A stretch of DNA of 64,000 nt from Escherichia coli. GTDB lineage: Bacteria; Pseudomonadota; Gammaproteobacteria; Enterobacterales; Enterobacteriaceae. Below, in pieces: positions 31,891-41,547 of this stretch; within the stretch, counting starts at the first letter, position 1, and every line of letters begins with the position of its first letter. A program made the translations under genes and the position numbers. The DNA is taken from NCBI RefSeq assembly GCF_048403405.1, contig NZ_CP183129.1, one strand, 5' to 3'. The notes under the pieces are model-generated. The model was not told where the DNA came from. It worked only from the letters and a program-made list of their open reading frames with translations, and made no database searches.

Positions 31891-32784
31891 CTATTTCCAG
31901 TTACAAGCAGCTTGAAGCGGTTTTAGCGCGTTTGACAGGCCGTTTAAATTGAAAGTTGCACTTACGGGGCTCTCATTATAAGGCGTTATTTTTGTATACA
32001 TTTTGCTTGAGTTGGCTAGTTTTCGGATGAAATCAATGTCATTACCTTTATAAAAAACAGCCTTTGTATCTGTAGATACTAGCCAGTTTCGCTCAACTGC
32101 TTTCTGTTTATCAAGGCGATAAAGCATGCTGGTTTGTTCAAGGCCTAAATATACATCCCAACTAAGAAATACTTCGGTTTTCTTTTCTCGGCAAGCTATA
32201 AAAAGAGTAGGAGTAACCGCTTCTCCAAATGGAGTTCTGATATAATCATCACTTTCTAACGATAAAATTACATTTTTCGAATCATCAATTGGCGATGTAG
32301 TAATGGATGTGTGCCATTTTCCTACATCTGTGGCTTTCTCTAATTTTGATTCAGCTTGAGCGATTTTATCCTGTGGGAATAGTTTATCGTAGCAGTTTAG
32401 TCTGGCTTCTTTATCATTTTCTGCACGACATTTAGATATCTCAGAAAGATTTGGTTGCTGAGCCTCTGTTGTTACTGGCTTTTCCGTTTTAGATTTTGAG
32501 TTTACAGATGGAGTAAATGTTGGAGAAAAGAAACGATCATAACAAGATAAACGTCTATCATCATCTTTCTCATCAGGGCATTGATCTCTGCTTTCGAATT
32601 TTTCAGCAACTTTCGTTCGAGTCGGTTGTATTGACTTATCGTAACAAGAAAGTCTGTCTTTATTATTTTCTATTGCTCGGCACTGGAGTACTGCATTGAA
32701 GTTCTTATGTTCAGTTGCTGCTTGAACAGGCAGTACACTAATTGATATAAATGATGCACCTATAGAAAAAATTATATTTTTCAT
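31891..32784 (-). CDS. AT-rich secreted protein with three Cys-Tyr-Asp repeat motifs, unknown function
   Basis: 297-aa ORF with signal peptide (MKNIIFSIGASFISISVLPVQA) and three repeats RLSCYDK / RLSCYDR / RLNCYDK; visibly AT-rich. Confidence 0.7.
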   Translation of the reverse strand: MKNIIFSIGASFISISVLPVQAATEHKNFNAVLQCRAIENNKDRLSCYDKSIQPTRTKVAEKFESRDQCPDEKDDDRRLSCYDRFFSPTFTPSVNSKSKTEKPVTTEAQQPNLSEISKCRAENDKEARLNCYDKLFPQDKIAQAESKLEKATDVGKWHTSITTSPIDDSKNVILSLESDDYIRTPFGEAVTPTLFIACREKKTEVFLSWDVYLGLEQTSMLYRLDKQKAVERNWLVSTDTKAVFYKGNDIDFIRKLANSSKMYTKITPYNESPVSATFNLNGLSNALKPLQAACNWK

Positions 32785-32788
32785 TTTA

Positions 32789-33121
32789 TTATCCCTTTGG
32801 TTTAGTAAGAAATACTAAAATTCCGATAATGATATCGCCAATAACCCATAAGCTTCCAATGGTAATTAAACCTAAGCCTGTACCAATAACTGCACCGGCT
32901 TTTTCGGCATCGGATGTGGCATTATTTATTATTTCACTAGTGCCTCCTAGTCCAACTAAAAGCGTATAGATCATAAAAATATTAAATAATATAAAAACCC
33001 ACTTAATGATCCGTCCAAAAAATGAACGCTTAAGTTTTTGCAGTTGTTTACCACAAGCAGGGCAATACAATGCTGAATCGCTCACCTCTTTCTGGCATTC
33101 AGGACATTTGATTAATGCCAT
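32789..33121 (-). CDS. Zinc-ribbon membrane protein, unknown function
   Basis: 110-aa ORF with N-terminal CPEC-x12-CPAC zinc ribbon and two hydrophobic helices; 4 nt upstream of the repeat-protein gene, forming an operon. Confidence 0.65.
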   Translation of the reverse strand: MALIKCPECQKEVSDSALYCPACGKQLQKLKRSFFGRIIKWVFILFNIFMIYTLLVGLGGTSEIINNATSDAEKAGAVIGTGLGLITIGSLWVIGDIIIGILVFLTKPKG

Positions 33122-33383
33122 GTAATCCGCCTCCTTTGGATTAATACGAGTTGATATTTGTTACAAAACATTTTGATTTTATCAGATTTATTTTTATTGA
33201 TAAGTGTCAATTGATTAGCTGGTATAGAGTGAGGCATATAGAAGGGCTGGTCTGTATCAGTATGTGATGCAAAAATCCCACAGTTTCATGGAATTTTTGC
33301 ATTTAGAGCTGTGAGATAGGGTGCCTTATCGACCTTACCCTGGCAACCGATTGACGGGGGATTACTCCCCCGTCGCGGTTTCC

Positions 33384-33524
33384 TTACTGCTTACACTGTA
33401 AGAACGCCGCAAACTCCGCTCCCCAGAAGCTCATCCGTATTTCACACAGCGAACCGTGCAGCATCCAGATGATGAGGATTACCGTCACGCAGAACGTGAT
33501 GGCCGTAAGCGATTTTTGCGACAT
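33384..33524 (-). CDS. Hok/Gef-family type I toxin-like small membrane protein
   Basis: 46-aa ORF MSQKSLTAITFCVTVILIIWMLHGSLCEIRMSFWGAEFAAFLQCKQ with AAGGAG 7 nt upstream; carries the Hok signature SLCEIR-6 residues-E-x-AAF after a TM helix. Confidence 0.6.
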   Translation of the reverse strand: MSQKSLTAITFCVTVILIIWMLHGSLCEIRMSFWGAEFAAFLQCKQ

Positions 33525-33714
33525 AGCGCTTGCTCCTTTTTCGGGGAGGCGCTAACCTATCACTTGCTTAGGGTAGACGGTTAGGGCCTCGGTTAAACAA
33601 AAGTGTTTTCCGGGGCCTTTCCACATCCGGCCATCGGGTATTCCCTCCGACCATCAGCCGAAAGGCACCCGCGCGTAATCTATCGCTTTTTTGTTACTCC
33701 GGCAATTCTGCCTG

Positions 33715-34017: not shown

Positions 34018-35127
34018 TCACTCTGTTTCCGCTATCCATTCCGGGATTTTTGCCTCAAGCTCAAGCTGCGTGGTAAAGCCGCTGTTATCAATAGTGTGCT
34101 CGGCTTTTGCAATGATCCAGTCCTGATTATCAATCTCGCTTTTAAATCCTGTTACCGTACCATGCATTTCGGGGTAGAGTTCTGCACGTCCACGCGCCAG
34201 CGTGATGGAGAATGATGCGGCTCCGCGTTGTAGTTGCTGCCACTTTGCCGCCGCTGCGCGTCTTGCTGCCTGTTCGTTCTGATAGGTCTTGCGTAACACA
34301 AACACATTGCCTTCCGCGCCTTCCATATAATCACCTTCACGGCTGCTGCTTTTCTCCTTTTGGGGTTTTGGTGGTTTGCGGCGTTTCACGCTGACTTTTT
34401 TCTTTTCCCCGTAATTAAGATCAAGCCAGTAGGCGCGTACCCCCGTATACGCCTCGCGGTCAGCAATACGGAACTGATGGCGATCGCCGCTGCTGCGTGT
34501 AATGGCGAACGAGGGCAACGGCTGGCCCTGTGCGTTCACGCCACCACCTGGCATGATGAATAACAGATTGCCGCTTTTTACCGTGGTGATTGCGCCCAGC
34601 ATTTCCGCCATGCGCGTAAGGAAGGACATGTCGCTTTCTTCGGTCTGGTCGGCGTGGTCGATTTCGATATCCATCAGCATTTCGCTGATTTGTGGTTTCA
34701 GACCATACCGATGAGCGATGGCGGATACCACACGCTCAACGGTCACATCATGCCAGGACACCTCACGTTTAACGTTAAATTCATCCCGAAAATCTGCGCT
34801 TCTGGCTGAAACAGTCAGCCTGTCCGGCGGTCCTTCGTGAGCGATTTCATCAACAATGTAAGTGCCTTTTTCTGTCAGCGGTTCTCCTTTCCAGCCAATG
34901 AGAACCGTCAGGCGCGCGCCCCGTGGCGGTAGCTGCAACTGACCATCCGCATCATCCAGCGTGATGGTGAGCTGGTCCGCCTCAAATCCCCGGTTGTCGG
35001 TCAGTGACAGGCTCATCAGGCGCTCTGCCACGCCTGACAGCGTTTTACCCTCCGCGAGAATATCAAAATCCGGCATTTTCACGGGGTCTGTGCCCTGACT
35101 GAGCAATTGCATGGTGGTGTCGGTCAT
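34018..35127 (-). CDS. D: Phage tail protein D (late control gene D family)
   Basis: ATG at 35127 preceded by GGGAGGGAA; about 370 aa, gpD-like; the track ORF is extended 44 codons upstream. Confidence 0.8.
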   Translation of the reverse strand: MTDTTMQLLSQGTDPVKMPDFDILAEGKTLSGVAERLMSLSLTDNRGFEADQLTITLDDADGQLQLPPRGARLTVLIGWKGEPLTEKGTYIVDEIAHEGPPDRLTVSARSADFRDEFNVKREVSWHDVTVERVVSAIAHRYGLKPQISEMLMDIEIDHADQTEESDMSFLTRMAEMLGAITTVKSGNLLFIMPGGGVNAQGQPLPSFAITRSSGDRHQFRIADREAYTGVRAYWLDLNYGEKKKVSVKRRKPPKPQKEKSSSREGDYMEGAEGNVFVLRKTYQNEQAARRAAAAKWQQLQRGAASFSITLARGRAELYPEMHGTVTGFKSEIDNQDWIIAKAEHTIDNSGFTTQLELEAKIPEWIAETE

Positions 35128-35284
35128 CTGTTCCCTCCCTGTGCGGCATGGTCGCATGTGCGTGCGGAGGGGGTTACTGCTTTTTGTTGTCGCCGGGTCG
35201 GGAGAACGGCGCAGGGGTGAGATTACGCGCGTGGTGGGTGATGATTGTTGCCGAATCATTTAACGGATACAAGGGGCTGAAGCT

Positions 35285-36469
35285 ATGAGTGAAACTCGTT
35301 TTCATGGTGCCCGTGTTACGGAAAATACCGACCTGGTAACAGCGATTAACGATGTTGATTCCAGCGTTATCGGTATCGTGGCAACGGCGGATGATGCGGA
35401 CGCGAAGCTGTTCCCGCTGAATAAGCCCACACTGCTGACCCGCGTCAATGACGTGCTGGGAAAATGCGGGACAACGGGGACGCTTTATCGTGCGCTTAAG
35501 GCCATCGCAGACCAGGTGAGCACAAAGGTGATCGTCGTTCGCGTGGCTGAACACAAAGAAGAAGACGGAAAGACGCAGGATCAACTGGTTATCGGTGGTT
35601 CTGAGGATGACGGCAGCTATACGGGGATGTATGCGCTGCTTGTTGCAGAGCAGGATGAAAGCATCGGATACCGTCCGCGTATTCTGGCCGCGCCGGAGCT
35701 GGACACGGAGGCTGTAACAAAATCCCTGTGCGTGATTGCAGGTAAACTGCGCGCGTTTGTGTATGCCTCATGTCACGGCTGTAACACGATGGCTGAGGCG
35801 ATTACCTACCGCCAGAAATTCAACGAACGTGAGGTGATGCTCTTATGGCCGGACTTCATCGCCTACAACCCGAAAAGTGGCAAAAACGAAACGTTCCCCG
35901 CGCCTGCCTATGCGTGCGGCCTTCGTGCGTACATTGACCATGAGCAGGGCTGGCACAAATCGCTGTCCAACGTTCCGGTTAAAAATGTGCTGGGAATGTC
36001 CAGGCATGTGTTCTGGTCGTTGCAGGCCGAAGACAGCGATGCCAACAGCCTCAACAACAAAGAAATCACGACCATTATTCGTCGCAACGGGTTCCGCTTC
36101 TGGGGCAACCGCACACCGGAAACGAACGCCTACATCTTTGAGGTGTATACCCGAACCGCACAGGTGCTGGCTGATTCAATTGCGGAAGCGCAGTTTGAAA
36201 CCATCGACAGTCCACTGACACCTGCGAACGTGAAGGATGTTATCAGCGCCATCAGGGCAAAACTGGATTCGCTGGTTACTGCCGGGAAACTGATTGGTGT
36301 GGAGTGCTGGTATGACGTGGTGGATAACGGCACCACGAATTTACGTCAGGGACGTGTGCGTATTCGCTACAAATATACGCCTGTTCCCCCGCTGGAAGAC
36401 ATGGAGCTTTACCAGACGTTTACTGATGAATTCTTTGGTCCCGCATTTGCGGTGCTGGGAGGTGCCTGA
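35285..36469 (+). CDS. FI: Contractile tail sheath protein FI
   Basis: 394-aa product of P2 FI size; followed by tube, E/E', tape measure and U in P2 order. Confidence 0.85.
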   Translation: MSETRFHGARVTENTDLVTAINDVDSSVIGIVATADDADAKLFPLNKPTLLTRVNDVLGKCGTTGTLYRALKAIADQVSTKVIVVRVAEHKEEDGKTQDQLVIGGSEDDGSYTGMYALLVAEQDESIGYRPRILAAPELDTEAVTKSLCVIAGKLRAFVYASCHGCNTMAEAITYRQKFNEREVMLLWPDFIAYNPKSGKNETFPAPAYACGLRAYIDHEQGWHKSLSNVPVKNVLGMSRHVFWSLQAEDSDANSLNNKEITTIIRRNGFRFWGNRTPETNAYIFEVYTRTAQVLADSIAEAQFETIDSPLTPANVKDVISAIRAKLDSLVTAGKLIGVECWYDVVDNGTTNLRQGRVRIRYKYTPVPPLEDMELYQTFTDEFFGPAFAVLGGA

Positions 36470-36981
36470 TGGCTGTACCAAAACATCTTCGCTTTTTTAC
36501 GTTGTTTGTGGATGGTGAAAACGAAGTGGGTAAAGTGACATCCGTCACGCCGCCCAAACTGACGCGCAAAACCGACAGCTATCGTGGTGGTGGCATGATG
36601 GGGGCGGTAAGTATTGATCTCGGTCTGGACGACTCCGCGCTTGATGCGAGTTTTGTCATGGGGGGAGCTGTTCGTGCGCTGTTCCTTAAATATGGCGGCA
36701 CGATTGACGGCACGCTGCTGCGTTTTGCGGGTGAATACTACACCGATGCAGAAAGCGATCTGTATGAAATCGAGATGCGCGGGCGTGTGACGGAAATTGA
36801 TATGGGGGAAGCCAAACAGGGCGAAGCCACATCACACACTTACGCTGTCAAAAACACCTACTACAAGCTGAGCGTTAACGATCGCCCGCTGTGGGAAATC
36901 GACCTGTTGAACCACATCTACCGGAAGGACGGCAAGGACATTGTGCCTGACCGTATCCGTTCCGCGCTTGGGCTTGGCTGA
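36469..36981 (+). CDS. FII: Tail tube protein FII
   Basis: 170-aa product; start overlaps the FI stop (TGATG). Confidence 0.85.
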   Translation: MAVPKHLRFFTLFVDGENEVGKVTSVTPPKLTRKTDSYRGGGMMGAVSIDLGLDDSALDASFVMGGAVRALFLKYGGTIDGTLLRFAGEYYTDAESDLYEIEMRGRVTEIDMGEAKQGEATSHTYAVKNTYYKLSVNDRPLWEIDLLNHIYRKDGKDIVPDRIRSALGLG

Positions 36982-37036
36982 TAAGTAATATGCAGGCGGC
37001 GCAGTGCGTCGCCTCTGACTGAAAAGGAGACAACTG

Positions 37037-37411
37037 ATGAAAGACATCGATACTGAAACCCGGAATAACACCGTGGCGGATGATGTGACGGCAGGTGAGG
37101 ATATGGCTGTCGAACGTGGCGTAAAACTGACCCGACCAATTGAGCGTGGTGGCGAAAAAATCACGTATGTGGAGATCACCGGGGCTATTGAGCAGGCTGG
37201 ATCCCTGCGTGGTCTGTCGCTGTCTGATGTGCTGAATCTGAAAGCGGATACCATGTTTACGCTGTTGCCTCGCGTGACCTCGCCACGACTGGATGAAGTG
37301 ATGATTAAAAAAATGTCGTCACGCGATTTTATTCAGTTGTGCGCTGTGGCTGTAAATTTTATGAGCGAGCCAGACTCTGGCGCGAAGAGCGTGCAGGAGA
37401 CGGCAGCGTAA
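37037..37411 (+). CDS. E: Tail assembly chaperone E
   Basis: 124-aa ORF with AAAGGAG upstream; an overlapping -1 frame ORF follows, the E/E' arrangement of P2-type tail chaperones. Confidence 0.75.
   Translation: MKDIDTETRNNTVADDVTAGEDMAVERGVKLTRPIERGGEKITYVEITGAIEQAGSLRGLSLSDVLNLKADTMFTLLPRVTSPRLDEVMIKKMSSRDFIQLCAVAVNFMSEPDSGAKSVQETAA
37307..37313 (+). promoter_or_regulatory. Candidate -1 programmed frameshift site (A7 run) for E+E'
   Basis: AAA AAA A in the E frame. The -1 frame has a TAA at 37306-37308 and is open from 37309 to 37575, so slippage on Lys codons would fuse E (to ...VMIKK) to the E' extension. Confidence 0.5.
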
Positions 37412-37575
37412 TCACCCTGGTGTGCTTTGAGCACATCGAAGATCTGGTGGCGGATATTGCCGCCATTTTTAACTGGTCGCCCGCCGAAATCTTCATGATG
37501 ACGCCCGGCGAAGTGGTTAGCTGGCGCGAGCGGGCGGCACTTCGCAGCGGGAATGCAGATAATGAAGACTCTTGA
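37309..37575 (+). CDS. E' extension (-1 frame) of the tail chaperone, expressed only by frameshifting
   Basis: Open -1 frame with no own start or RBS context; ends at a TGA overlapping the start of T. Confidence 0.55.
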   Translation, partial: KNVVTRFYSVVRCGCKFYERARLWREERAGDGSVITLVCFEHIEDLVADIAAIFNWSPAEIFMMTPGEVVSWRERAALRSGNADNEDS

Positions 37576-40369
37576 TATCCGGGTCGCTTTCAGCGCCGTT
37601 GACAGGCTGACCCGGCCTGCCGAAAACGCCCGCCGCCTGATGGGGCAGTTTGGTGACTCCATCCAGCGAACGCAGGGGGCGATCAAAAATCTCGAGCGTC
37701 AGGCGCGTTCATTTGAGCGCGCCCGTGACGCTGTCAGTAAAGCGGATGCTGGCATCGTGAAAGCACGACGCCAGCTTAACGCCCTTAATCAGTTACAACG
37801 CACGGGTACAGTGCTCAGCGAAAAACAACAAAAGCTGATGCAGCAGTTAAGCACCCGGCTTGAACGCCTGAATGAATCGCGCACACGGGAAATTCAGAAA
37901 ATGCGGGAGCTTGGCGGAGAGCTGAAACGCCACGGCATTTCCCTGACAGGCAGCGATAACACCATCCAGCAGGCCATCAGACGCACCGAACAGTACAACA
38001 ACCAGCTTGAACGCGAACGGCAGGCGCTTGCGCGTGTAACGCGGGCGCGTGAGCGGTATTCGCGCGCGCAGGAAACAGCGGGAAAACTGAAAACAGGTGG
38101 TGCGCTGGCAATTGGTGCGGCAGCGGCGGGCGGCTATGCTGCCGGGCGTTTTTTGCAGCCTGCGATCGGGTTCGGCAAAGAGATGTCCCGCGTTCAGGCA
38201 CTGACGCGAATCGACCAGAACAGCCCGCAGTTTAAGGCGCTGCGTGAGCAGGCGTTAAAACTTGGCTCTGAAACGCAGTTCACCGCAGGCGATGCCGCCA
38301 GTGGACAGGCATTTCTTGCAATGGCTGGCTTCACTCCGCAGGCCATTCAGGCTGCGCTTCCCGGCGTGCTGAGCATGGCAACGGCTGGCGGTATGGATCT
38401 CGGCGAGACGGCAGATATTGGCTCAAATATCCTGACGCAGTTCGGCCTTTCTGCTGACCAGATGGACCGGGTCGGTGACACACTCACCGCAGCGTTTACC
38501 CGTACCAACACTGACCTTCGCGCACTGGGCGAAACCATGAAATATGCAGGTCCGGTGGCGGGTAAGCTGGGAATATCGCTGGAGCAGGCCGCAGCGATGG
38601 CTGGCGTGCTGGCGAATATGGGCATCAGAGGGAGTGATGCCGGGACGGCAATGCGTGCCAGCCTGGCTCGTCTGGCATCACCGCCAAAGGCGGCGGCAGA
38701 AGCTCTGAAAGAGCTGGGCGTGTCCGTCTCGGATGCCGGGGGCAAAATGCGCCCGATGGAGGATGTGCTGGCCGACCTTTATAAAGCCACCCGTAAATAC
38801 GGGGAAGTTGACCGGGTATCGTTCTTTAAGGACATTGCCGGAGAAGAGGCTTTCACATCGTTTATGGCGCTCGTTGATGCAGCGGGTGACGGTTCCTTAC
38901 CCAAACTGAGAAAAGAACTTGAAGGCGCGCGCGGTGAGGCTGAACGCACAGCAAAGGTTATGGCCAACAACCTTGACGGCGATCTGAAATCACTCGGCAG
39001 TGCATGGGAAGGGTTGCGCATCCGCATTGCAGATCTGATTGACGGTCCGCTGCGTTCTGTCACGCAGTGGCTCACGCGGGTGGTCTCAAAAGTGACGGCA
39101 CTGGCGCAGGCCCATCCGGCACTGACGCGCCAGTTACTGATAGCGGGAGGTGCACTGCTGGCGACAACAGCAACGGTTGGTTCGTTGTCTCTGGTTATTG
39201 GGGTGCTTCACGGGAAGCTGGCTACGTTACGTCTCGGTTTTTCTCTCCTGACCGGATCAATGAATGCTGTCAGGGGCCTGCCAGCACTATGGGGAATGGT
39301 GACGGGTTCCGTTTCTTTACTGGGAGGCGCTATCGGGGCGCTGATCAGTCCGGTTGGTCTTATCGTGGCTGCGCTTGCCGGAGCTGCCGTTCTTATCTGG
39401 AAATACTGGGATCCCATCAGGGCATTTTTTGCCGGGGTGTTCAGCGGGATTATGGAAAGGCTGACCCCGTTGCGCGAAACCTTTGAACGGTTTGGTCCTG
39501 TTTTTGACGCAATCGGAAGCGGGATCAGCCAGGTGTTTAACTGGTTTAAATCGCTGCTGTCACCGATGGAGTCCAGCAAGGAAACGCTGGATAAATGTAC
39601 CAGTGCTGGCGAGATATTCGGTAACGTTCTTGGCGGTGCGTTACAGCTTGTTCTGACACCTGCAAAAATGCTACTGGATACGCTGGCGTGGATACTTGAA
39701 AAACTTGGCGTCCTTCCGGATGAAGCGGAAAAGGCGCGCAAGAAAATCGAAGACGCACAGCGTGCGGCCATTCTTCAGGACAAGGTTGCCTTGCTTCAGG
39801 GGGACCTTGCGAAAATCAATCCGCCGAAGCCTGTGGAAAATGGCAATGGCACCGGAGGTGATAAACCCAAAGACAACAAACCGCTCACAGACAGCAATAC
39901 CGGGACGCTACGCAGACTCAGCAAAATTGCTGATAACACAGGTAAGCTGGTTGATGAGACGAAAAAACGCATTGGCCCTGGCGATATTGTCTTTAAGAAC
40001 CTGCCCCGCGCACTTGCTGTTCGTGGGGAGTGGCAGGAGCGGAAGATTGCGCAGGTCAGTAAGCCTGCCCCCGCAATTAATATCACACCCGTAGTCCCGG
40101 CTCCGCTGCCTCCGGCGCTGGTCCCTGTTGTTGCGGCCAGCTCCCGCCCGGTGGCGGAGGCCATACGATCGCCAGTGGCATCAGTTCCTGCAGCTTCCCG
40201 TAATCGGGAGCCTGCTGTCTCCAGATTTGGCGGTGAAATTCATGTTCATCTGCATAACGTTGTTACGCAGAATCCCCGCGAACTGGCGAAACTGGTCGGT
40301 GAAATGGTCAGGGCAGAGATGGAACGGCGCGCCCGTGCCGGACGTGGCAGTTTTTACGATAAAGATTGA
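37553..40369 (+). CDS. T: Tail tape measure protein T
   Basis: 938-aa product with coiled-coil N-terminal half and Gly/Ala-rich hydrophobic central segments; the start could instead be the ATG at 37562. Confidence 0.85.
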   Translation: MQIMKTLDIRVAFSAVDRLTRPAENARRLMGQFGDSIQRTQGAIKNLERQARSFERARDAVSKADAGIVKARRQLNALNQLQRTGTVLSEKQQKLMQQLSTRLERLNESRTREIQKMRELGGELKRHGISLTGSDNTIQQAIRRTEQYNNQLERERQALARVTRARERYSRAQETAGKLKTGGALAIGAAAAGGYAAGRFLQPAIGFGKEMSRVQALTRIDQNSPQFKALREQALKLGSETQFTAGDAASGQAFLAMAGFTPQAIQAALPGVLSMATAGGMDLGETADIGSNILTQFGLSADQMDRVGDTLTAAFTRTNTDLRALGETMKYAGPVAGKLGISLEQAAAMAGVLANMGIRGSDAGTAMRASLARLASPPKAAAEALKELGVSVSDAGGKMRPMEDVLADLYKATRKYGEVDRVSFFKDIAGEEAFTSFMALVDAAGDGSLPKLRKELEGARGEAERTAKVMANNLDGDLKSLGSAWEGLRIRIADLIDGPLRSVTQWLTRVVSKVTALAQAHPALTRQLLIAGGALLATTATVGSLSLVIGVLHGKLATLRLGFSLLTGSMNAVRGLPALWGMVTGSVSLLGGAIGALISPVGLIVAALAGAAVLIWKYWDPIRAFFAGVFSGIMERLTPLRETFERFGPVFDAIGSGISQVFNWFKSLLSPMESSKETLDKCTSAGEIFGNVLGGALQLVLTPAKMLLDTLAWILEKLGVLPDEAEKARKKIEDAQRAAILQDKVALLQGDLAKINPPKPVENGNGTGGDKPKDNKPLTDSNTGTLRRLSKIADNTGKLVDETKKRIGPGDIVFKNLPRALAVRGEWQERKIAQVSKPAPAINITPVVPAPLPPALVPVVAASSRPVAEAIRSPVASVPAASRNREPAVSRFGGEIHVHLHNVVTQNPRELAKLVGEMVRAEMERRARAGRGSFYDKD

Positions 40370-40375
40370 GGAGTC

Positions 40376-40870
40376 ATGGTCATGATGATGATCTACGGCA
40401 TGTTTGTTTTTGAGCTGCGCACACTGCCGCATCAGCAGTTACAGCAAAACAAAAGCTGGCGGCATGTGAAAAATGAACGCGTTAACCGTTCAGCAAGCTG
40501 GCAGTATATAGGTGCAGGTGATGATCGCATTGTGCTTTCCGGCGTGCTTTATCCTGAAATTACAGGTGGCGAAGTGTCGCTTTCGTTGCTGACCACGCAG
40601 GCATATACAGGACGCCCCTGGCCTCTGATTGATGGTGTCGGGCAGATTTACGGCATGTATGTGCTGACTGAAACGAATACGACCCGTTCCGAGTTTGATC
40701 GCTACGGTAAGGCGAAAAAGATAGAATTTTCACTGACCCTTGAACGCTGTGATGAGGATTTGCGGGAGCGCCTGCAATCCTCATCATTCAGCGATATGCT
40801 GTCCGGCTTCAAAGATAAGGTGACATCATCTCTTAACAGCGCGGCCAGTTCAGTTAAAGGGCTGTTCTGA
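40376..40870 (+). CDS. U: Tail protein U
   Basis: 164-aa product (MVMMMIYGMFVFELRTLPHQQLQ...), gpU-like. Confidence 0.8.
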   Translation: MVMMMIYGMFVFELRTLPHQQLQQNKSWRHVKNERVNRSASWQYIGAGDDRIVLSGVLYPEITGGEVSLSLLTTQAYTGRPWPLIDGVGQIYGMYVLTETNTTRSEFDRYGKAKKIEFSLTLERCDEDLRERLQSSSFSDMLSGFKDKVTSSLNSAASSVKGLF

Positions 40871-40883
40871 TTTAACACAAAAA

Positions 40884-40916
40884 CCGCTAATGGTCAGATT
40901 AGCGGTTATTTTGTTT
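40884..40916. terminator. Terminator hairpin between convergent U and invertase genes
   Basis: CCGCTAAT-ggtcag-ATTAGCGG followed by TTATTTTGTTT on the plus strand, with a T-run also on the minus-strand side; overlaps the invertase stop. Confidence 0.65.
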
Positions 40917-41493
40917 CCTGACTCTTCTCTATTGTTCCGATTGATTCTCCTGCGGGGTGGTAACGATAAATCGTCGATATACCAATGCCGTAAATTATTG
41001 CCAGTTGTTTTCTGTCGTGCCCGTTTTTGATCAGCCTTGCTATTTGCTCATGCTGTTCTTTTGTCAGCTTCGGTCGACGTCCGCCTGTGCGCCCCCGTGC
41101 GCGTGCTGCCGCCAGTCCGGCCAGTGTACGTTCAACAATTAATTCACGTTCCATTTCAGCCAGGGCACCCATCACGTGGAAGAAAAAACGCCCCATTGGA
41201 GAAGATGTATCTATGCTGTCGGTCAGACTGCGAAAATTAATTCCTCGCTCCCGTAGTTCCCCGACGAGAGAAATCAGATGTTTCATGCTTCGCCCGAGGC
41301 GATCCAGTTTCCAGACAACCAGCGTGTCACCTTTTTGAAGGCGCTTTAAAGCGCGTTTTAATCCCGGTCGGTCTGTCTTTGTCCCGCTTAATTTATCTTC
41401 AAATATTTGTTCACATCCTGCACAAACAAGAGCGTTTCGTTGCAGGTCTGTATTCTGGTCATTTGTTGATACCCTTACATAGCCAATCAGCAC
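40906..41493 (-). CDS. pin: Serine DNA invertase (Hin/Gin/Cin/Pin family)
   Basis: GTG at 41493 gives MLIGYVRVSTNDQNTDLQRNAL... with the catalytic Ser in GYVRVST and a C-terminal HTH; the track ORF starts at TTG 41511. Confidence 0.9.
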   Translation of the reverse strand: MLIGYVRVSTNDQNTDLQRNALVCAGCEQIFEDKLSGTKTDRPGLKRALKRLQKGDTLVVWKLDRLGRSMKHLISLVGELRERGINFRSLTDSIDTSSPMGRFFFHVMGALAEMERELIVERTLAGLAAARARGRTGGRRPKLTKEQHEQIARLIKNGHDRKQLAIIYGIGISTIYRYHPAGESIGTIEKSQETK

Positions 41494-41547
41494 GCTGAAT
41501 CTCCCGTCCAAAAGCGCAAATCATGCCATGCAGGCCGGAAACGGCCA

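Follow-up and report, generated by a model that had tools for sequence, protein, structure and literature searches.

A predicted mok-less hok/sok type I module beside ogr in a P2-like prophage of Escherichia coli

The hok/mok/sok (parB) locus of plasmid R1 provides the textbook model for type I modules of the Hok family. Its toxin is a plasmid-encoded membrane protein of 52 residues with an L-C-E motif. The mRNA is folded and locked by pairing of the tac and fbi boxes; tac refolds after 3' processing, and the truncated mRNA ends in a last stem-loop that bounds the processed form (PMC9841398). Control is exerted by Sok, an unstable antisense RNA encoded in cis against the leader. The overlapping out-of-frame gene mok is translated up to the hok Shine-Dalgarno (SD) sequence and Sok blocks the mok ribosome-binding site (RBS) (PMC9841398). 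The hokW-mokW-sokW cassette of the lambdoid phages 933W/Sp5 (AF125520), whose toxin-antitoxin function was tested experimentally (PMC8621323), codes for a 51-residue HokW. Here mokW is an in-frame 19-codon extension of hokW, as mokC is of hokC in E. coli K-12; mokB, like R1 mok, is out of frame with hok. K-12 hokA is disrupted by IS150 and mokA is a pseudogene. A 2026 preprint by Escalera-Maurer et al. catalogued 32,532 hok loci, with 61 Hok clusters, and reports enrichment of hok in prophages; the coding sequence alone was analysed, Mok and Sok being stated to lie outside the analysis (10.1101/2025.08.07.668861).

The locus described here lies in a P2-like prophage within the window, a 64,000-nucleotide (64-kb) stretch of E. 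coli contig NZ_CP183129.1. It shares with R1 a membrane toxin with the L-C-E motif, a folded mRNA with the tac-fbi lock, a 3' stem-loop at which the processed form would end, and a predicted unstable antisense RNA encoded in cis against the leader. It differs in its 46-residue toxin, its prophage location and the lack of mok. Like hokW it is prophage-borne and its mRNA aligns with that of hokW from tac to fbi, but the host phage is P2-like instead of lambdoid and the mokW-type extension is missing. We consider it very probable that the locus is an intact, mok-less hok/sok type I module borne by a P2-like (P88-like) prophage, with ogr on one side of it and the cargo/attachment end on the other.

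The prophage adjoins the host genes flk and yfcJ. Its remaining genes were read off a near-identical annotated E. coli genome, which lists capsid, terminase, baseplate and lysis genes and the replication gene A. Across window 34018-41500, the minus strand carries gpD and ogr. The tail genes FI, FII, E, T and U lie on the plus strand from about 35285; next come a recombinase gene and a tail-fibre segment that looks invertible. This gene order is unlike that of P2 and recurs in 288 complete E. coli genomes. Two cargo genes occupy 31891-33121 (minus strand) between hok and flk. The first codes for a 110-residue zinc-ribbon membrane protein (32789-33121, minus strand), with a promoter-like site at 33203-33176 (minus strand). 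The second codes for a 297-residue protein (31891-32784, minus strand) with three R-L-[SN]-C-Y-D repeats, named 'type VI secretion system-associated protein TagO' in RefSeq. Some related phage records (500465-2, PhiR44_2) have both genes, P88 neither. A tRNA-Arg gene (anticodon CCT; 3033-3107, minus strand) is the sole gathering-level Rfam/ARAGORN match in the window; tRNA genes are common integration sites.

The hok coding sequence occupies 33524-33384 on the minus strand (46 codons plus TAA) and encodes the peptide MSQKSLTAITFCVTVILIIWMLHGSLCEIRMSFWGAEFAAFLQCKQ. Its ATG is preceded at 8 nt by the SD sequence AAGGAG (33533-33538, minus strand) and is separated from the ogr stop codon (33717-33715) by a 190-nt interval. 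The strong SD, the leader of about 190 nt and the Hok-family assignment put forward by the first-pass annotation for this 46-codon ORF are all borne out. Residues 7-44 of the peptide align to positions 5-42 of the 42-position Pfam model HOK_GEF (PF01848) with an E value of 4.3e-7 and 29.9 bits, and the same PF01848 match is precomputed for close relatives of the peptide. The best NCBIfam model is HokA (E 6e-9). The scores stay below the cut-offs of the HokA equivalog NF007290 (35.8 versus 89 bits) and of the Hok subfamily NF007279 (23.6 versus 73 bits). Since the first of these lies so far under the equivalog cut-off, the peptide is not a HokA orthologue, and it falls outside the curated NCBIfam Hok subfamily.

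HokA of K-12 is the closest canonical protein (41% identity in an alignment with HokA, HokB, HokC and HokW), and both share the ...AAFL.CK carboxyl terminus with its C-terminal cysteine. Identity to HokW is 34% over 35 residues. L26, E28, E37 and A39 are invariant in the HokA/B/C/W alignment, and C27 is common to all aligned Hoks except HokB. The peptide has the layout of the family: about 50 residues, an N-terminal hydrophobic helix, the L-C-E motif and then E-x-A. Its motif agrees with the conserved L30, C31, E32 and E41 of a 1264-peptide Hok logo given in the preprint (10.1101/2025.08.07.668861). Sequence evidence supports identification of this ORF, located where the P2-like prophage ends in ogr, as a type I toxin gene of the Hok/Gef family. 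A chance resemblance of an ORF and a few motifs within the ogr 3' untranslated region could draw on the small size of the ORF and nothing else; given significant profile matches, homology that covers the mRNA from end to end, and homologous loci numbering in the thousands, we attach practically no credence to it.

The gene itself is already on record. An identical protein is annotated in RefSeq as "Hok/Gef family protein" (WP_000078920.1) beside an 'ogr/Delta-like zinc finger' gene, is found as YP_009949292.1, and is labelled 'MokW-like host killing' in records of P88-like Peduoviridae phages. A 511-bp region of the locus is 99.6-99.8% identical to many E. coli chromosomes, and among 5,426 complete E. 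coli genomes about 1,184 carry at least 80% of it, ogr junction included. The exact peptide is #1628 of the preprint alignment and belongs to Hok cluster 72 (10.1101/2025.08.07.668861); at the protein level, cluster 72 and WP_000078920.1 do not differ from the window peptide. Two constructs of cluster 72 appear in Table S2 of the same source: 72_1621, with the single-residue change V15A, and 72_1589, the Stx2a-phage variant of the peptide. There, 45 Hok sequences were tested and the text names just three as non-toxic, neither construct being among them; according to that text both were toxic, the one-residue variant 72_1621 when overexpressed (10.1101/2025.08.07.668861). The toxicity test proposed by the first-pass annotation has thus in effect been reported for a one-residue variant. 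The element is a complete, already known hok/sok cassette with an annotated and catalogued gene. It carries little weight as a discovery, the gene being annotated in hundreds of genomes, the enrichment of hok in prophages known and a one-residue variant reported toxic. A literature search for hok beside ogr in P2-like phages returned nothing specific. Part of the modest value of the present analysis is the full anatomy, with promoters, Sok, tac and fbi boxes and processing hairpin, of a locus whose records annotate the coding sequence alone.

This anatomy was deduced by comparison with ten further loci of the 46-residue lineage from Stx2a phages, E. albertii, Citrobacter, Klebsiella oxytoca and Salmonella, giving 11 sequences with the window. 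An alignment-based scan of genome contigs gave seven loci and the diversity was extended via contigs encoding the protein. The dN/dS ratio of the hok frame is 0.11-0.39 against seven diverged relatives of the same length; an eighth same-length locus, a copy in a Citrobacter MAG, has an identical coding sequence and is outside this set. The 46-residue length and the GAEFAAFLQCK carboxyl terminus are kept across four genera. The hok coding frame is under purifying selection. Several database copies have frameshifts or lost stop codons, and the window copy is intact.

Similarity among the lineage loci starts at the conserved -10 box of the hok promoter (33682-33677) and stops just past GGCACCC (33324-33318). 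The segment in common with Stx2a lambdoid phages is 33691-33319 (373 bp, 82% identity) and homology to phage P88 stops at 33309. A profile of the relatives run with nhmmer matches 33672-33316 and nowhere else in the 64-kb window, which has no second hok copy. Homology with annotated hokW (933W), hokC and hokB covers the full mRNA, from the 5' GCGGGTGC box to the 3' GGCACC box. In a Salmonella P2-like prophage the cassette is again found directly after gpU-gpD-ogr. By these alignments the cassette is a sharply bounded unit of about 375-390 bp found in unrelated phage types. Its sharp limits and the occurrence of one 373-bp unit in P2-like and lambdoid phages fit a small mobile 'moron'. An imperfect inverted repeat, ATGCAAAAATCC ... 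GGAATTTTTGCAT, lies at 33268-33303, 15 nt beyond fbi and outside the conserved cassette, at the point where P88 and Stx2a phage homology ends.

Some copies of the gene deserve separate mention. In two Salmonella loci (L017 and L018, about 1800-2230), a lambdoid prophage carries hok at its tail-fibre end. Unrelated sequence replaces the 5' tac box and the hok promoter of this copy, which retains the Sok region, ORF and fbi box and may be truncated and devoid of a promoter. Two others (L015 and L016, 1850-2710) bear two complete 46-residue hok cassettes in tandem, about 490 bp apart. The tandem cassettes have differing Sok 5' tails, which would fit avoided cross-talk between paralogues. Loci of hok that match the E. 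coli and Stx2a versions exactly or nearly so, on contigs assigned to a Planococcaceae MAG, a Collinsella MAG and Xanthomonas pisi (L008, L010 and L012), most likely reflect contamination or mis-binning of enterobacterial DNA.

The full-length hok mRNA, with ends placed by homology, would span 33316-33672 on the minus strand, and this stretch is conserved en bloc in E. coli, E. albertii, Salmonella, Citrobacter and Klebsiella. The -10 box of its promoter, TAGATT (33677-33682, minus strand), is in place as TAGAAT, TAGATT or TAGAGT in 10 of the 11 subfamily loci and in hokW. A candidate -35 hexamer, TTGCCG (33700-33705, minus strand), lies 17 nt upstream of it and 9 nt after the ogr stop; this hexamer is not conserved among relatives. 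The 357-nt RNA (33672-33316) folds with a minimum free energy of -157 kcal/mol (z = -6.4), and its 5' GGGUGCCUUUCGGCU pairs with the 3' end. The pairing partners are the tac box GGGUGCC at the mRNA 5' end (33664-33670, minus strand), invariant in all 11 loci, and its exact complement, the fbi box GGCACCC (33318-33324, minus strand), with pairing extending to about 33333. Folding gives a tac-fbi pairing probability of 0.98-1.00 in each of the 11 sequences. The 12-pair helix (alignment columns 3-14 with 361-373) is 98.5% paired and has three pairs changed on both sides, so the 5'/3' pairing anticipated by the first-pass annotation is found and covaries. The RNAalifold consensus of the 11 sequences has 75 pairs, 15 of them with compensatory changes. 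It keeps the tac-fbi helix, a stem around the Sok target, the 3' hairpin and a long helix in which the start codon and first codons pair with the AEFAAF codons. In this structure 96.5% of cells are paired versus about 40% with the partners slid, and the covariation score is 0.225 versus 0.05-0.08 in the slid controls. An Rfam CsrC match at 33343-33464 (13 bits, E 0.48) was rejected as chance.

A GC-rich stem-loop, GACGGGGGA-GUAA-UCCCCCGUC (33374-33353, minus strand), begins 9 nt past the TAA (33386-33384). Five of its nine stem pairs are changed on both sides among the relatives. This hairpin had been correctly noted beforehand; it does not mark the end of the element, as the conserved module runs on to the fbi box. 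No U tract follows the hairpin on the hok strand, where a terminator scan makes no call, its only call being on the plus strand. Intrinsic termination of hok at this site was rejected on that ground, and the same strand has no terminator after fbi. Because there is no U tract, we infer that the hairpin is probably a block to 3' exonucleases and the 3' boundary of the processed, active mRNA, analogous in role to the last stem-loop of truncated R1 hok mRNA (PMC9841398). For an RNA that ends at the hairpin, folding predicts that tac takes an internal GGCCCC as its new partner in about half of the sequences, as tac refolds in the R1 model.

On the opposite strand, a Sok-like antisense RNA gene is predicted at about 33566-33622 (plus strand); its RNA would begin with a 5' tail of about 18 nt, to be followed by a long hairpin and then a short U tract. 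In alignments annotated sokW, sokC and sokB all start at 33566 and finish at 33620-33626 (plus strand). The putative promoter (33530-33558, plus strand) has a -35 box TTGCTC (33530-33535), a 17-nt spacer and a -10 box TAACCT (33553-33558). Promoter and RNA, both placed by homology, fall where an antisense RNA had been suggested, in the surroundings of 33540-33640 on the plus strand. This promoter agrees poorly with the sigma-70 consensus (about 6 of 12), and a generic scan missed it. Its geometry is the same in all 11 lineage loci and in annotated sokW, sokC and sokB, with boxes that vary between TTGCTC, TTGCCT and TTTACT and between TAACCT and TATCCT; sokW of 933W/Sp5 has the same -10 TAACCT and the same spacing as the window. 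The Rfam sok model RF01794 aligns over its full length (1-157) at 33670-33511 with 43 bits (E 7.7e-8). Because this falls short of the gathering score of 59, the locus is a divergent relative of the Rfam sok seed sequences.

The Sok hairpin folds at -23 kcal/mol. Its G-U pairs correspond to C-A mismatches on the hok strand, and across loci the stem has compensatory changes and G-C to A-U exchanges. These pairs and exchanges point to a function on the plus strand. Sok is probably expressed. The predicted 5' tail (about 18 nt, unpaired) is the most variable part of the cassette. By homology, Sok would be encoded in cis, fully complementary to the hok leader, with its own promoter inside the hok ribosome-binding region.

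The absence of a mok-like ORF reading into hok, first remarked upon in the initial reading, is upheld by the comparison. The position of the mokW/mokC ATG (window 33574) reads ACC. Relative to hokW/hokC, the mok frame is broken by an 8-nt deletion and by a TAG at 33554-33552 that is complementary to the Sok -10 box. Upstream of hok, each of the three frames closes within 27-43 nt without offering a start codon. In the window and most relatives no start codon, near-cognates included, is found in a frame open into the hok RBS. A 24-residue ORF at 33626-33552, in frame with hok and ending at the TAG 27 nt before the ATG, was rejected as mok for lack of an SD and of conservation. A 28-residue ORF at 33654-33568 was likewise rejected: it has no SD, and its frame, start and stop are unconserved among relatives. 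Frame, start and stop of the upstream ORFs all differ in the 11 relatives. A hidden mok using a near-cognate start was also discarded, no such start opening into the hok RBS in the window or most relatives. On sequence grounds the locus is a hok/sok system and not a canonical three-gene hok/mok/sok. Since mok is missing throughout this Hok subfamily, its absence is a lineage trait and not decay. This lineage-wide absence is the sole non-textbook feature of the locus.

The earlier suggestion of a partly decayed locus does not stand. In its full form it would make the element a hok relic whose toxin was silenced by the loss of mok, kept as neutral prophage baggage. The canonical mok start is indeed gone and the frames are closed 27-43 nt upstream of hok; several database copies are frameshifted or have no stop, one Salmonella copy has no 5' part, and thermodynamic prediction leaves the hok SD AAGGAG paired in every modelled state of the RNA (full-length, truncated and Sok-bound). 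However, mok is absent in all 11 diverged members while dN/dS remains at 0.11-0.39, the 46-residue length is kept across four genera, and compensatory changes maintain the pairing of tac-fbi, of the 3' hairpin and of the Sok hairpin. A silenced toxin would also have no need of a conserved Sok promoter, and cluster-72 peptides nearly identical to this one are reported toxic in the preprint text (10.1101/2025.08.07.668861). We hold the relic to be very improbable and privilege an intact module whose RNA elements are all in place.

With no mok, Sok must act in this module without mok-coupled translation. On its upstream side, the duplex that Sok forms would stop 28 nt short of the hok SD, which makes direct occlusion of the SD unlikely. 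Sok could instead trigger decay of the mRNA by RNase III, block an upstream standby site or cause refolding. The retained GAGG at 33590-33587 is a candidate ribosome standby site that Sok would block. Darfeuille et al. reportedly described in 2007 such a case for tisB/istR-1, where the RBS is structured, no leader peptide is present and the antisense RNA binds an upstream standby site. tisB/istR-1 is a working analogy alone for Sok, with no sequence or structural homology, and we know of no hok locus for which the standby mechanism has been tried. In the refolding alternative, the same GAGG would compete with the hok SD for the anti-SD CUCC (33547-33544), and Sok binding would re-close the SD. 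Ensemble folding of the window sequence fits this, giving a CUC:GAG pairing probability of 0.93 for the full-length, 0.01 for the truncated and 0.94 for the Sok-bound RNA. Measured in this fixed register, the value is about 0 in 8 of the 10 other sequences, whose upstream box reads CUCUCC so that the register may not apply. The Salmonella P2-like locus gives 0.85-0.94 in all three states and that of S. diarizonae at most 0.15.

Following the R1 and hokW paradigms (PMC9841398 and PMC8621323), the module would operate as follows. The full-length hok mRNA would be stable and closed both to ribosomes and to Sok. Slow 3' trimming to the GC-rich hairpin would remove fbi and allow the 5' end to refold. 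The processed mRNA would be bound by short-lived Sok and destroyed, with RNase III as the presumed nuclease, or be translated once Sok is exhausted, as might occur on loss of the prophage DNA or collapse of host transcription. Hok would then enter the inner membrane and depolarise or kill the cell. Such a module could serve for addiction, assist lysis in the manner of hokW-sokW, or exclude other phages; for the last of these, PMC8621323 cites the precedent of R1 hok/sok acting against T4.

A main role as lysis helper on induction, instead of addiction or defence, would leave the identity of the module unchanged. The homologous prophage cassette hokW-sokW of Sp5 doubles phage release after mitomycin C and SokW vanishes on induction (PMC8621323). 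The present cassette lies directly downstream of the late-gene activator ogr, and since no terminator separates ogr from the hok promoter, read-through from ogr late in induction is possible. Against this, the P2-like prophage carries its own holin and endolysin genes, the hokW effect is just about 2-fold (PMC8621323), and sequence does not separate a lysis role from addiction or phage exclusion. We regard lysis as the main role as rather unlikely, and retain the intact module with its several possible roles. Beside the replication gene A, at 59098-60376 (minus strand), the prophage also has a ParM-like actin-type segregation ORF of 319 residues with a small partner ORF. RefSeq names the pair 'plasmid segregation protein ParM' and 'plasmid partitioning/stability family protein'. 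Such a pair is unexpected in an integrated P2-like phage and bears on whether hok/sok serves maintenance.

The cluster-72 lineage of 46-residue Hok proteins is frequent among E. coli and Salmonella prophages of the P2-like and Stx2a types. The preprint that defines the cluster states that Mok was not analysed (10.1101/2025.08.07.668861). As a tentative proposal, to which we give somewhat less than even credence, this lineage as a whole is a naturally mok-less hok/sok family in which Sok control operates without translational coupling. A literature search for mok-less hok loci found no paper describing them, and mok-less control in this lineage may not have been described before. If the proposal is true, a widespread natural variant would dispense with the mok step that the textbook R1 model includes. 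Having no mok, the lineage provides a natural test of whether control by Sok needs leader-peptide coupling.
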